Source of the DNA: Dictyostelium discoideum
Taxonomy: Eukaryota
Direction: 5' to 3'
Assembly: GCA_000004695.1 (NCBI GenBank)
Contig: CM000151.3
Span: forward strand, 6,944,001 to 7,008,000
Length of the DNA: 64,000 bases
The notes under the pieces are model-generated. The model was given only the letters and a program-made list of their open reading frames with translations. It searched no databases and was not told the DNA's origin. Positions 35,797 through 42,396 of the stretch are shown in pieces. The position numbers and the translations under genes were made by a program. The stretch's first letter is position 1, and the number at the start of each line of letters is the position of its first letter.

Positions 35797-38102
35797 ATGG
35801 AGTCATTTACAGAGAAAATGTTTGATTTTCAAAGAAGAGCAACACAAGCAGTACTTCAAAAGATGGGAGCATCAGAAACAACAATTGATGAACAATTTGA
35901 AAATACTCATACAAATTTTAAAAGATTAGGTGAATTTTTAACACATTTAGAGGAATCAACACAATCATCATTAACTCAAATGGAAAAGATGTGTTTTGCA
36001 AATAATCAATTAGCATCATCTTTATGTAATTTCGTATTATCAGAGTTATCAAATGATGACACTGAATTCTCTACAGGTTTATTATCGAAATTCTTTTTAA
36101 AAACTTCAACCAATCCAAACCTATCTCAAATGGAAAACACTAAAGAGTTTGAATTGAGACAATCAAAATTTCAAGAATCAGTTCAAAGATTATACGATAG
36201 TTTCGGTACAATGGGTCATGAAAATATGGCCTCTACTCAAGATGAAATCAATCATAAAATCGTACGTCCAATTAAAAGAGATCAAGATTATAATAAAGTA
36301 ACTAAACAATTAATAGAAAAAAGAAAAAAATTAAATTTAGATTATGATTCAATTAAAAGATCAAAGTAATTATTAATATATATATATATATATACACATA
36401 TTATATATATTAAATTTAATTTATTTCATTTACTAATTATTATTGTTATGTTTTTTTTTTATTTTTTTTTTATAAAAGTGATAATGAAAAAATTAAATTA
36501 GTTAAAGAAGAATTTGATATATTATCAAAGAAAACAGCATCACATCTTCAAAATAGGTCATATGTAAGATGTAAATTAATAGTTCATAGTGTAATCACTA
36601 TGGTACAACAATTTTGTATGTTTTTCGAATCAAACTCTGTACTTTTAGAAGGATTATTAACATTTATAGAACCACTCATTCAAACTTATCAATTAAATAC
36701 CGAGCAATTAACTGATATCTATACAATTAAAAAAACAACAACCCCCACCACCACCACCACTACTACCTCTTCACCTTCATCTTCTTCACCTAGACAACAA
36801 CCATTTAATGGCAGTAATAACAATGGTAATACTCCAACTGGAAAACCGATACCATCTTCACCACCTCCAACTTATAAAGAGCATTTAGATAATAATAATA
36901 GTAATAATAGTAATCATCAACAACAACAACAACAACATCAACAACAACAAAACCAACAAAGAAATAATAACAATAATAATAATAATAAAAATAATAATAT
37001 GAATGAAAGTCATCAAAATTTAAATGAAGAATTTACACAAAAGGCATCATTTCAAGGATCACCATCAGATTCAAATAGTAGTACAAGTAGTAATAATTAT
37101 TCACCTCAACAACAACAACAACAACAACAACAACAACAACAACAACAACAACAACAACAACAACAACAACAACCACCACCACCAAAGGAAGAGAAATTAT
37201 TTAGCGTTTGGGATGATGATTTAAATGGTAAATCTAATGATGATAATAATACGGCAAGCAATAGTAATAGTAAGAGTAAAAGCAATGATGATGATGATTG
37301 GATGTATAATAATAATAGTAGCGACAATAAACCAAATTTGAGTAGGTCCGATACAACTTGGGAAGATCCTTTAGTACCAGAAAACAGCTCCTATTCAAAA
37401 CCAGCATATTCTTCATTTAATAATACTCCACAACAACCGCAATACTTTAATACACAACCTCAACAACAACAACAACAACAATTTAATAGACAGCCACATC
37501 AACAACAACAACAACAACAACAACAACAGCAACAACCTTTTAACAGACAGCCATCTCAACCATACCAACCACCTCCACAACAACAACAACAACAACAACA
37601 ACAACAACAACAACAACAAAAAAAATCAAGCGGATTTGAAAATATATTTGGTGATTTTGATTTTACCTCTCCTTCACAACAAAGACAGAACCCACAACCG
37701 CCTCAACAACAAAGTAATTATTTTAATAATGGTATGCCACCACAATCATCAGTTTCTCAACATGTTGATAATCACCAACATGAAAGATCAAATGTTGAAC
37801 CTATAGTATCAGAGAAAATAAAAATGTGGGGTGAAAAGGGTGGTAGAAAGAATAATTTAAGAGTTTTATTATCGACACTTCATGAGGTTTTATGGATAGA
37901 AAGTGGTTGGGAAAAAGTAACCTATGGTTCATTGGTTACTCCAATTCAAGTTAAAAAGGTTTATCGTAAGGCAATCATCGTTGTCCATCCTGATAAAGTT
38001 CATAATGGTACAATGGAACAAAAAATGATTGCTCAAAGAATTTTCGAAACTCTTAGAGACCAATTTGAAGTTTTTAAAGTTGATTTAGAACCATCAAATT
38101 AA
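35797..38102 (+). CDS. Protein with an N-terminal arfaptin-homology/BAR domain, a long poly-Q/N linker and a C-terminal auxilin-type J domain. It has 2 exons.
   Basis: Exon 1 is 35797..36365 with donor GTAATT. Exon 2 is 36479..38102. The N-terminus (MESFTEKMFDFQRRATQAVLQKMGASETTIDEQFENTHTNFKRLGEFLTHLEE...CNFVLSELSNDDTEFSTGLLSKFF...|...VRCKLIVHSVITMVQQFCMFFESNSVLLEGLLTFIEPLIQTYQ) looks AH/BAR-like. The C-terminus ([87 protein letters not shown]) closely matches the auxilin/GAK J domain (..[35 protein letters not shown]..). Confidence 0.8.
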
Positions 38103-38384
38103 TTAAAAAATAAAAAAAAAAAAATAAAAAAAAAAAAAGAAAAAAAAAAAGAAATAAAAAAGAAATAAAAATAAAAATAAAAAAATAAAATAAAAACAAT
38201 TAAATTAATAAATGAAAAATAAATAAATACTCTAAGGATCTTTTATTTATTTTAATATATTTATTTATTTGGGAAAAAATGATAAAATGGTTGACCCACT
38301 AAAAGAGAAAAAAGATAATTGTTTAATTTATTTTATTTTTATTACAACAGACTAATTAAAGTTTCATTTAATATTTTAAATTTT

Positions 38385-38745
38385 TATTATTATTATTATT
38401 ATTATTATTATTATTATTATTATTATTATTATTATTATCATTATTATTATTACTATTATTGTTATTTTTATTATTATTATTATTATTATTATTATTATTA
38501 TTATTATTATTATTATTATTATTATTATTATTATTATTATTATTATTATTATTATTATTATTATTATTATTATTATTATTATTATTATTATTATTATTAT
38601 TATTATTATTATTGTTATTATTATTATTATTATTATTATTATTATTATTATTATTATTATTATTATTATTATTATTATTATTATTATTATTATTATTATT
38701 ATTATTATTATTATTATTATTATTATTATTATTATTATTTAGATG
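38385..38745. repeat. (ATT)n microsatellite of about 120 units with a few TTG/ATC/CTA interruptions. It occupies the position that the paralogous duplicate unit uses for the IFI6-like gene.
   Basis: Seen directly in the sequence. The six-frame poly-Y/poly-L/poly-N ORFs at 38319..38811 are artefacts of this repeat. Confidence 0.95.
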
Positions 38746-39839: not shown

Positions 39840-40335
39840 TTTTAAAAAGAGAATTAAAAGTTGTGATGATTTTGTGAAAAAAATAAAAAAAAAAAAATAA
39901 AAAAATTAAAAATCGCACAAAAATTTTTTATTTTGGTTAATCTTTTTCTCGAAATCAAAATTTTTTAAAAAATAATTTTTTAAAAATTTAATAAAAAAAC
40001 ATTTCAAAATAATTATATTTAAATACAAAGATAAGAACTAATTATTAAATTTGTTATGAGTTATAATTATAATATTTTGATTAGAAAAAGTTTTTTTGAA
40101 AATAGATGTAAAATTATTAACCAAAACAAATAAACTAAAAGAAATTTTTTTTTTTTTTTTTTTTATTGACAATTATTTTATTAGTAAATAAAAAAAATAA
40201 TAATAAATTTATTATATGATATTACATTTATTTGTTGTTTTTTTTTTTTTTGTTTTATATTTTTTTTTTTTATTTTATTTTTTATTTTTTTTTTAAAATC
40301 TATACTTTTTTTTTTAAAAAATTTGAAAATTGCGT

Positions 40336-42396
40336 TTAAAGTTCATCATGGTTTGGCATATCTTCACCAGCGCCATTTGGGGAACCACCAGCAGCACCAT
40401 ATAATTTAGAGAAGATTGGTTGAACGATCTTTTCAAGGATTTTGTATTGTTCATCAAATTCTTCTTTTTCGGCAGAGGAGTTAACATCCAACCAAGAAAG
40501 GGCATCAGAGATAGCGGTTTCAATGGTTTCTTTATCATCTGATTCGATTTTACCACCGATCTTATCTTTATCACCAATGGTGTTTTTAATTTGATAGATG
40601 TAATTTTCCAAGGTATTCTTGGCTTCGACACGTTCTTTGGCAGCTTTATCTTCATCAGCGGCATCGGCAGCTTCTTTGACCATACGATCGATATCGGCTT
40701 GTGAGAGACGTTCCTTATCGTTGGTAATGGTGATGGATTCTTTAGAACCAGAAGCTTTATCTTCAGCTGATACATGTAAAATACCATTGACATCCATTTC
40801 AAAGGTGACTTCAATTTGTGGGACACCTCTTTGAGCTGGTGGGATACCAGAGAGATCAAATTTACCCAAGAGATTGTTATCTTTGGTCATTGAACGTTCA
40901 CCTTCATAGATTTGAATGGAGACACGATCTTGATTATCTTGATAGGTTGAGAAAACTTGTGATTTCTTGGTTGGAACAAATGTACCTCTTGGGATTAAGG
41001 CAGTCATAACTCCACCAACGGTTTCAATACCGAGGGTGAGTGGGGCGATATCTAAGAGTACGAGAGTGTCAGTACCTTCTTCATTGGTGAAAATACCACC
41101 TTGAACGGCAGCACCATAGGCTACAGCCTCATCTGGATGAACACCACGATTTGGTTCTTTACCATTGAAAAAATCTTTTAAGAGTTGTTGAATCTTTGGA
41201 ATACGAGTTGAACCACCAACTAAAACTACTTCGTGGATTTGTGATTTCTTGAATTTGGCATCTTCTAATACCTTCTTTACTGGGTCTAAAGTCTTTTTGA
41301 AGAGATCCATATTGAGTTCTTCAAATTTGGCTCTGGTGAGGGTTTCAATGAGATCTTTACCATCAAAGAAGTTTTCAATCTCTAATTGGGTTTGTGGAGA
41401 GGTTGAGAGAATACGCTTGGCATTTTCAGCAGCTCTTCTTAATTTTTGGAGTGATTTCTTATCTTTTGAGGCATCTTTACCAGTCTTCTTTTGGAAAACG
41501 GTTAAGAAATGTTTCATAACACGTTGATCGAAATCTTCACCACCTAAATGAGTGTCACCATTGGTTGAACGAACTTCAAATACACCATCTTCAATGGATA
41601 AAACTGAAACATCAAATGTACCACCACCTAAATCGTAAACCAAGATATTCTTTTCCTTATCACCAGTGGCATCGAAACCATAGGCTAATGCTGCTGCGGT
41701 TGGTTCATTAATAACACGTAAAACTTCAAGACCTGCAATAACACCTGCATCCTTTGTGGCTGCACGTTGTGCATCATTGAAATAAGCTGGACATGTTACA
41801 ACGGCGTGAGTTACTGTCTTACCAAGGGATGCTTCGGCAATTTCCTTCATTCTACCAAGGATCATTGCTGAGATTTCTTCTGGTGAGTAAGTCTTTTCTT
41901 CACCTTTAACTTTAACTACAACGTATGGTTTATTATTTTTTGAAACAATTTTATATGGTAATAATTTCATATCTCTTTGAACTTCTTCATCATCAAATCT
42001 AAAAAAAAAAAAAATAAATAAAAAAATAATTAGTTATATATTTAAAAAAAAAAAAATAAATAAAAAATAATTAATTAATTACCTTCTACCAATTAAACGT
42101 TTAATATCAAAAATTGTATTTTCTGGGTTGAGAGTTGCTTGATTCTTTGCAGCTTCACCAATGAGACGTTCAGTTTCAGTGAATGCAACATATGATGGAG
42201 TAATACGATTACCTTGATCATTTGGAATAATTTCAACTTTACCTTTCTTGAAGACACCAACACATGAATAGGTAGTACCTAAATCAATACCAATAACACT
42301 TCCATAATCTTTCTTTTCTTCTTCTTTCTTTTCAGCTGCTGCTGCAAAAGAAATTAATAATAATAAACATAATAATGCGTAAATGGATTTATTCAT
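40336..42396 (-). CDS. grp78: ER-luminal Hsp70 chaperone BiP/GRP78, with a signal peptide and a C-terminal HDEL. It has 2 exons.
   Basis: Exon 1 is 42396..42083 ([49 protein letters not shown]...[12 protein letters not shown]) with donor GTAATT. Exon 2 is 41998..40336 ([28 protein letters not shown]...[11 protein letters not shown]...[10 protein letters not shown]). Hsp70 signatures are present throughout. Confidence 0.95.

Follow-up and report, generated by a model that had tools for sequence, protein, structure and literature searches.

Between an auxilin-like J-domain gene and the grp78/BiP gene of Dictyostelium discoideum AX4 lie two adjacent stretches of DNA with similar flanks and dissimilar interiors, only one of which holds an intact gene of the IFI6/IFI27 family. 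How this arrangement came about was addressed in a window of 64,000 nucleotides on chromosome 2 (GenBank assembly GCA_000004695.1, contig CM000151.3, positions 6,944,001 to 7,008,000 of the forward strand), to which all AX4 coordinates below refer. An earlier note on the same window had proposed a microhomology-mediated tandem duplication with a chimeric junction and unit-specific cargo. The present analysis makes it highly probable that an old direct tandem duplication copied the entire spacer that separates the auxilin-like gene from grp78 through a chance microhomology, and that the two copies decayed afterwards.

Two tandem units between the auxilin-like gene and grp78

Two units were delimited by a repeat finder, self-BLAST, and a global gapped alignment, and their lengths of 1164 and 1179 bp agree with the approximately 1.15 kb estimated previously. 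Filtered and global alignments placed the units adjacent to each other in head-to-tail orientation. These alignments were used in place of a lenient self-BLAST and an unfiltered cross-BLAST, which were dominated by low-complexity matches. The duplicated region includes the following features.

37994..39157: unit A, 1164 bp
37994..38003, plus strand: first copy of the microhomology, TAAAGTTCAT in the J-domain codons; proximal breakpoint and start of unit A
38344..38379: unique stretch of unit A, 36 bp, beginning acaacagactaattaaag... and preceding the microsatellite; ancestral, also in unit A of a second D. discoideum assembly (L001, below) and not in unit B
38380..38739: (ATT)120 microsatellite of unit A, 96% matches; expanded form of an ancestral array situated just 3' of the IFI6-like gene
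38855..39157: right flank, the diverged unit-A version of the grp78-adjacent spacer, ending ...tttgaaaattgcgtt
39158..40336: unit B, 1179 bp
39158..39167, plus strand: second copy of the microhomology, at the A/B junction
39158..39257, plus strand: orphan fragment of the J-domain gene, a copy of its last 109 nt, now 100 nt, with a 9-nt in-frame deletion
39477..39839, minus strand: IFI6/IFI27-family gene in unit B, an intact 120-aa open reading frame (ORF) with 100% identity to DDB_G0276513
40337..40346, plus strand: third copy of the microhomology; distal breakpoint, over the 3' coding end of grp78 (minus strand)

Unit A is composed of the 3' end of the J-domain gene with its downstream region, the microsatellite, and copies of both the region upstream of the IFI6-like gene and the grp78-proximal spacer. 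Unit B holds the intact gene and ~90 bp upstream of it. The left flanks (37994-38343 and 39158-39481) were 96.2% identical in aligned columns and 86.0% identical when gaps were counted, and the right flanks (38855-39157 and 40001-40336) were 91.2% and 68.5% identical, respectively, so that the previous figure of about 90% is sustained for aligned columns. Local alignment scores exceeded the mean of dinucleotide shuffles by 58 standard deviations for the J fragment, 45 for the left flank, and 29 for the right flank (z = 28.7); hence, the similarity between the units is no by-product of AT-richness. The description of unit A as carrying only a 360-bp (ATT)n array was also accurate: the array is the longest microsatellite of the window, where a tblastn search found no second IFI6-like copy.

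Several ORFs of poly-Asn, poly-Tyr, and poly-Leu, 107-147 codons in length, run across the array (38368-38811 on the minus strand, 38319-38750 and 38459-38782 on the plus strand). These ORFs arise mechanically from the repeat, and gene callers may be misled by them. The similarity of two sequences flanking the array, ATGGTTGACCCAC (38288) and ATGGTTAACCCAG (38744), was considered as the footprint of a deletion or an insertion, and it was rejected because the match is short and the second site is homologous to tggttaatc of unit B.

Microhomology at the breakpoints and the chimeric junction

The window contains the 10-nt sequence TAAAGTTCAT at three positions and no others, 37994, 39158, and 40337, which are all three of the unit boundaries. 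The same three places were recovered by a search for the 16-mer TAAAGTTCATAATGGT with at most one mismatch, for which 0.02 occurrences are expected by chance, and the boundaries are identical at 15/16 positions over TAAAGTTCAT[A/C]ATGGT. At 37994, the 16-mer encodes D-K-V-H-N-G right after the HPD codons of the J domain, with the 10-nt core corresponding to the codons D-K-V-H. At 40337, the motif is the reverse complement of ..GAT GAA CTT TAA and covers the grp78 stop codon (40336-38), the Leu and Glu codons, and part of the Asp codon of HDEL. The breakpoint therefore overlaps the end of the coding sequence, and its former placement just after the stop codon was incorrect.

In the gapped alignment of the two units, the junction appeared as a fusion of ...tttgaaaattgcgtt, TAAAGTTCAT, and aatggtaca, in this order. 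The spacer end ...tttgaaaattgcgtt, which elsewhere enters grp78, at 39158 enters the copied 3'-terminal 109 nt of the J-domain gene. The junction is thus chimeric as proposed, with the grp78-proximal end of the spacer joined to the 3' end of the J-domain gene. A shared gttcat hexamer had been suggested as the site of the breakpoint; shared microhomology was indeed found, but it spans the 10 nt of TAAAGTTCAT rather than six.

The orphan J fragment constitutes a 3'-terminal pseudo-exon downstream of the real gene. The earlier note had recognized it as a second copy of the last 90 nt of the gene; a copied fragment is present, of the different length listed above. It includes neither the HPD motif nor the first two helices of the J domain, and its four substitutions relative to the gene are all non-synonymous (Q>L, D>G, E>K, and P>S). 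In addition, the fragment has GAA (Glu) where the AX4 gene has GAC. GAA is also found in the corresponding genes of three related genomes (L001, L002, and L003, below); the fragment was therefore copied from an older version of the gene, before a substitution in the AX4 lineage.

The locus in related genomes

A homologue search with the IFI6-like protein identified four proteins in three other assemblies: L001 (D. discoideum, GCA_054859355.1), L002 (D. cf. discoideum, GCA_054859235.1), and L003 (D. cf. discoideum, GCA_054859205.1). In the coding sequences of grp78, the J domain, and the BAR exon, divergence from AX4 was 0.7-1.5% for L001 and 1.4-2.3% for L002 and L003, and the order grp78, IFI6-like gene, and auxilin-like gene was common to all four genomes. 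A search with the BAR-domain exon for further dictyostelid loci returned one ORF from Logan, in contigs of ~1.3 kb that end far from the duplication.

A single unit was found in L003, with the motif at both of its ends (10746-10755 and 9476-9485). Read from the J-domain gene to grp78, the locus opens with the end of the J-domain gene, which includes TAAAGTTCATAATGGT, and with the left flank; an (ATT)n array (~105 bp) and a further ~60 bp lead to the IFI6-like gene, after which the spacer extends to TAAAGTTCATCATGGT at the stop codon of grp78. The sequences around the two motif sites share nothing past the 16-mer. The L003 spacer showed no self-similarity, and neither a long repeat nor a mobile element was found at the breakpoints. 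Since the array and the gene lie side by side in this genome, both belong in one unit. The proposal that the duplication was mediated by microhomology is upheld by this genome, where the motif lies at exactly the two breakpoints of a single unit, and by the AX4 junction, which is the fusion of distal end and proximal start expected from it.

Two further features were observed in the L003 locus. At ~10015-10025, one nucleotide is missing from a CCC run of the IFI6-like gene (gagcacccagt to gagca-ccagt), which shifts the reading frame, and the gene is annotated from a downstream ATG as 101 aa; either the gene is truly a pseudogene or the assembly contains a homopolymer error. A (TA)n array is located at 9625-9665 in the grp78-proximal spacer. 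It is not in AX4 or L001, and a shorter one is found in L002 at ~8165-8180. Turnover of the spacer appears to proceed mainly through indels and microsatellites.

In L001, two units were found. Unit A contains the 36-bp unique stretch, an (ATT)61 array (183 bp), and a complete IFI6-like ORF of 127 codons, and unit B contains no array and a gene with a frameshifting 10-bp deletion. Characters specific to either unit are common to AX4 and L001, including cacT versus cacA in the left flank (38300 and 39432 in AX4), and aatc versus aacc and several block differences in the right flank. Moreover, the B units of both strains have an identical deletion junction (ttatttttatt joined to ttgg), and AX4_B and L001_B group together in the gene tree with 99.6% bootstrap support. 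These shared characters, the common deletion junction, and the grouping indicate that both the duplication and the unit-B deletion predate the split of AX4 and L001.

The A/B junction of L001 is without ~156 bp relative to AX4 39139-39294, a segment that includes the J fragment. It reads tttaaagcacatttaat, in which a 15/17 match to tttaaagttcat, the AX4 junction motif, is joined to ttaat, the last 5 nt of the fragment. This suggests that L001 has the AX4 junction minus the interior of the fragment. AX4 alone retains the pseudo-exon. Compared to unit A of L001, unit A of AX4 is without ~540 bp, comprising the gene, ~55 bp on its 3' side, and at least ~85 bp on its 5' side. One end of this gap is at the array, which is twice as long in AX4.

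A micro-inversion of 22 nt was also observed between the AX4 units, where 40013-40034 in unit B matches the reverse complement of 38867-38888 in unit A at every position, with a 14-nt core between TTAT and ATAA. Because both L001 units show the unit-A orientation, the inversion is derived and specific to AX4 unit B. The annotation of L001 contains two artefacts (10001-10353 / 11030-11621): the frameshifted B copy is modelled with an implausible intron of ~23 bp, and for the intact A copy a 174-aa protein is annotated whose poly-Asn tail comes from splicing into the (AAT)n array. The plain ORF of the A copy ends ...VPKAKL and a stop codon before the array.

Two intact IFI6-like genes were found in L002, in units of ~930 and ~1110 bp (locus 10490-8450), and the two copies group together with 100% bootstrap support. 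The breakpoints differ from those in AX4: the left one is inside the left flank, so that no J fragment is present, the right one is ~430 bp from grp78, and TTTGAA is found at the three boundaries. The L002 duplication is thus an independent event at different breakpoints, which implies a single unit in the ancestor of L002. Upstream of the grp78-proximal copy only, a 136-bp palindromic insert (8812-8947) was observed, with 52-nt arms that are 94% complementary and a 32-nt loop. It was not found in the other L002 unit, at the other loci, or in the AX4 window, and it looks like a small insertion of the hairpin type or one resembling a miniature inverted-repeat transposable element.

History of the duplication and alternative explanations

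The comparisons establish the anatomy of the units, the pre-existing pair of motifs, the sharing between strains, and the order of the losses. The starting point would have been a single-copy arrangement in which two chance occurrences of TAAAGTTCAT (15/16 over 16 nt) lay on one strand at a distance of ~1.2 kb, one in the J-domain codons right after HPD and the other over the stop and last codons of grp78. The interval would then have been copied head-to-tail by a replication template switch, by microhomology-guided end-joining, or by unequal sister exchange. Which of these pathways acted (the end joining would be between sisters, and the unequal exchange would use 10-16 nt) can be inferred but not read from the sequence. 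Both flanking genes would have stayed intact, with the junction as the only new sequence, and an interval that carried an (ATT)n array and one IFI6/IFI27-family gene would have yielded two copies of the gene.

The subsequent decay is divided between the common ancestor and the two strains. Before the split of AX4 and L001, the array and the former 3' end of the gene disappeared from unit B. In AX4, ~540 bp with the gene and its promoter were later lost from unit A beside the array, the array expanded to 120 repeats, and unit B underwent the 22-nt micro-inversion. In L001, the A gene was kept intact, the B gene gained the 10-bp frameshift, and the interior of the J fragment appears to have been deleted. 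The AX4 units do differ in content as the earlier note held, but the difference was not a gain of cargo: the ancestral unit, represented by L003 and by unit A of L001, held both the array and the gene, and each AX4 unit lost one of them. The difference in cargo is thus best attributed to differential loss and not to insertion, with an apparent reciprocal retention in which AX4 keeps B and L001 keeps A. Substitution identities in the left flank (94.7% for AX4_A and AX4_B, 96.4% for AX4_A and L001_A, and 93.4% for AX4_A and L003) fit a duplication between the two splits.

Several points weigh against this history. The monophyly of the A and B copies to the exclusion of L003 had a bootstrap support of only 50% in the gene tree, and the single unit of L003 may be ancestral or a secondary collapse from two. 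The deletion of the unit-A gene, the exact length of the array, the retained pseudo-exon, and the micro-inversion in AX4 are all taken from the reference sequence alone, and the L001 junction is too degraded to prove by itself that the same event is seen in both strains. The frameshifts in L001 and L003 could in principle be assembly errors, although a 10-bp gap is atypical of such errors.

That the AX4 reference is in error, with a repeat expansion or a mis-join of reads turning one unit into two, is highly improbable. The region is certainly hard to assemble, with 10-23% G+C, homopolymers, and a 360-bp triplet array, and the AX4 locus was read here from the reference assembly. Searches for exact protein matches to the 53-codon ORF at the junction and to a unit-A-specific ORF of 44 aa found none, Logan contigs included. 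However, the units differ by 4-9% substitutions and many indels, unlike artefactual copies, and the AX4 array ends in a unique junction, attatttagatggttaaccc, with no repeat on both sides. The comparison of copy number with the assembly of another strain, which had been suggested as a check, settled this point for the duplication: the independent L001 assembly has two diverged units with the same diagnostic changes, so the duplication is no assembly artefact. There is next to no likelihood that the units were duplicated empty, or with a microsatellite only, and that unit B received the IFI6-like gene at a later time as mobile or transduplicated cargo. In AX4, gene and array do hold the same position at near-equal length (363 and 360 bp), but they stand side by side in the single unit of L003 and together in unit A of L001, L002 has two genes, and neither terminal repeats nor a target-site duplication was found around the gene.

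Separate events in AX4 and L001, or ongoing unequal crossing-over that homogenises or rearranges the units, would make the AX4 junction younger than the L001 duplication. Such a course would account for the ~156 bp and J fragment missing from the L001 junction and for the right flanks of the A units in AX4 and L001 being only ~82% identical, and L002 demonstrates that the locus can duplicate independently. It is nonetheless distinctly unlikely, given the identical internal deletion junction and 99.6% grouping of the B units, the diagnostic changes shared by the A units, the 15/17 vestige of the AX4 junction in L001, and the GAA codon that places the copying of the pseudo-exon before a substitution of the AX4 lineage. 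A functional junction product, whether a small protein, an alternative 3' exon, or a regulatory RNA, is very unlikely. The J fragment is in frame, its stop codon is kept, its 9-nt deletion preserves the frame, and it lies within an ORF of 53 codons (39096-39257). Yet this ORF begins with TTG in a T-run, is without an ATG, and had no family match in a Pfam scan. All four substitutions of the fragment change the amino acid, the HPD motif and two helices are missing, and the fragment was deleted in L001. Its use as an alternative 3' exon was rejected since the sequence offers no usable pair of splice donor and acceptor that keeps the frame and since L001 lost the fragment. The duplication followed by decay is therefore retained as the explanation of the locus, and the orphan J fragment and the remnants of unit A in AX4 are most likely non-functional relics, a loss of function that we infer.

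The IFI6/IFI27-like gene

The gene identified here as DDB_G0276513 had been assigned to the IFI6/IFI27 family in the earlier note, and this assignment was confirmed by the Pfam family Ifi-6-16 (PF06140), which scored 36.4 bits against a cut-off of 29.1 over residues 31-105 and profile positions 3-82 of 84. Its relatives also have a precomputed PF06140 match. By the curated threshold, the protein can be regarded as a bona fide member of the family. The 3' end of the gene was reshaped by the unit-B deletion that took the microsatellite, and the new end reads ...FDVPK and a stop codon. No solved structure related in sequence to the protein was found, and a profile search with five IFI6-like sequences returned no relatives outside AX4, L001, L002, and L003. 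A search of the literature available for this study on DDB_G0276513, on the IFI6/IFI27 family in Dictyostelium, or on microhomology duplications in Dictyostelium found no reports.

Between genomes, the nucleotide sequence of the IFI6-like gene diverges by 11-23% and that of the neighboring genes by 1-2%, an approximately tenfold faster divergence of the IFI6-like gene. The ratio of non-synonymous to synonymous substitution rates (dN/dS) was 1.4-1.8 when L001_A was compared with the B-type copies and with L003, and most other pairs gave 0.4-0.9, figures that come from ~120 codons and carry no significance value. The higher values of L001_A would be compatible with relaxed constraint.

In all four genomes, the gene and grp78/BiP lie on one strand, with the gene immediately downstream. 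The linkage carries little meaning, as the genomes are too close to each other. In a review, human IFI6 is reported to act at the endoplasmic reticulum (ER) with the aid of BiP (PMC8228428, citing Richardson et al., 2018). A broader reading would hold that the IFI6-like gene is fast-evolving with copy-number turnover in the D. discoideum species complex, and that its place 3' of grp78 reflects an ancient pairing with BiP, in ER stress or anti-pathogen defence, predating interferon. The turnover is suggested by at least two independent duplications at different microhomologies (TAAAGTTCAT in AX4 and L001, TTTGAA in L002), by the reciprocal copy losses between strains, and by the divergence and the elevated dN/dS of the L001 A copy. 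The pairing is suggested by the reported dependence of human IFI6 on BiP and the fixed position downstream of grp78. Taken as a whole, this reading appears unlikely.

Relation to known systems

Microhomology-mediated tandem duplications are usually attributed to replication template switching (fork stalling and template switching, FoSTeS, or microhomology-mediated break-induced replication, MMBIR) or to microhomology-mediated end joining. The duplication described here resembles them in its head-to-tail units, its junction of distal end and proximal start, the few to ~15 shared bases that pre-existed at the breakpoints, the intact flanking genes, and the lack of a transposon or long repeat. 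Nothing essential differs; what is particular to this case is that the breakpoints lie in the HDEL and stop codons of grp78 and just after the HPD codons of the auxilin-like gene. Reciprocal, or divergent, loss of duplicate genes between lineages is an established evolutionary pattern, and the retention of only copy B in AX4 and of an intact A with a frameshifted B in L001 conforms to it. The present case differs in that the comparison is of two strains and that the products of both copies belong to one small protein family.

In laboratory stocks of D. discoideum, duplications of 15 kb or more were identified by array hybridisation; they arose recently in culture, and their breakpoints were not base-resolved (Bloomfield et al., 2008; PMC2643946). 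Some of them are near complex repeats or tRNA genes (PMC2643946). The organism is the same, and its genome duplicates segments readily. In contrast, the duplication reported here is 1.2 kb, old, common to another strain, resolved to the base at its breakpoints, and free of any repeat element.

The review cited above names IFI6, IFI27, IFI27L1, and IFI27L2 as animal paralogues of the IFI6/IFI27 family (PMC8228428). Similar to the animal IFI6/IFI27 proteins (ISG12, PF06140), DDB_G0276513 is ~120 aa in length, includes hydrophobic stretches rich in Gly, Ala, and Ser, and scores above the Pfam threshold. It differs in its amoebal host; to our knowledge, no interferon system is present in amoebae.

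The duplication is real and well resolved, but it is an ordinary kind of structural variant, and it neither opens nor settles a long-standing question. It provides a clean, base-resolved case in which a chance 10-nt match of two unrelated genes led to the duplication of the interval between them in an extremely AT-rich genome, and in which the two copies decayed differently in different strains. For the annotation of dictyostelid genomes, neither the orphan J fragment nor the 147-codon poly-Asn ORF over the array should be called a gene, and DDB_G0276513 is to be regarded as the survivor of a gene pair. The case also marks an IFI6/IFI27-family gene beside BiP as unusually dynamic, which would be important only if expression or knockout data tie the gene to ER stress or defence.

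Flanking genes and sequence context

The two genes that border the duplicated region are as follows.

35797..38102, plus strand: auxilin-like gene, from ORFs (exon 1, 35797-36369; exon 2, 36600-38102)
40336..42396, minus strand: grp78/BiP (exon 2, 40336-41970; exon 1 near 42079-42396)

Exon 1 of the auxilin-like gene encodes a BAR domain (Pfam BAR, 41.2 bits), and exon 2 encodes a central Q/N-rich part and, at the C-terminus, the J domain, whose HPD codons directly precede 37994. The C-terminal 120 aa matched auxilin J domains in the PDB with E-values from 6e-19 to 2e-17 (best 1xi5_J, 5.9e-19), with ...VVHPDK aligned, and the generic Pfam DnaJ model scored 17 bits, under its cut-off of 27.8. 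BAR was the sole other domain in the Pfam scan, which gave no clathrin-binding, PTEN-like, or kinase regions of the kind found in animal auxilin/GAK. The gene thus appears to resemble auxilin in its J domain only. For grp78/BiP, the Pfam HSP70 model scored 688 bits, and the C-terminus ...PNHDEL ends in the ER-retrieval signal HDEL.

The G+C content of the window ranged over 10-38%, with CAA/AAT repeats, and the duplicated region (10-23% G+C) included many homopolymers. The window also encodes a tRNA-Leu(TAA) at 4162-4244 (minus strand) and a tRNA-Pro(TGG) at 60296-60366 (plus strand), both far from the duplication.

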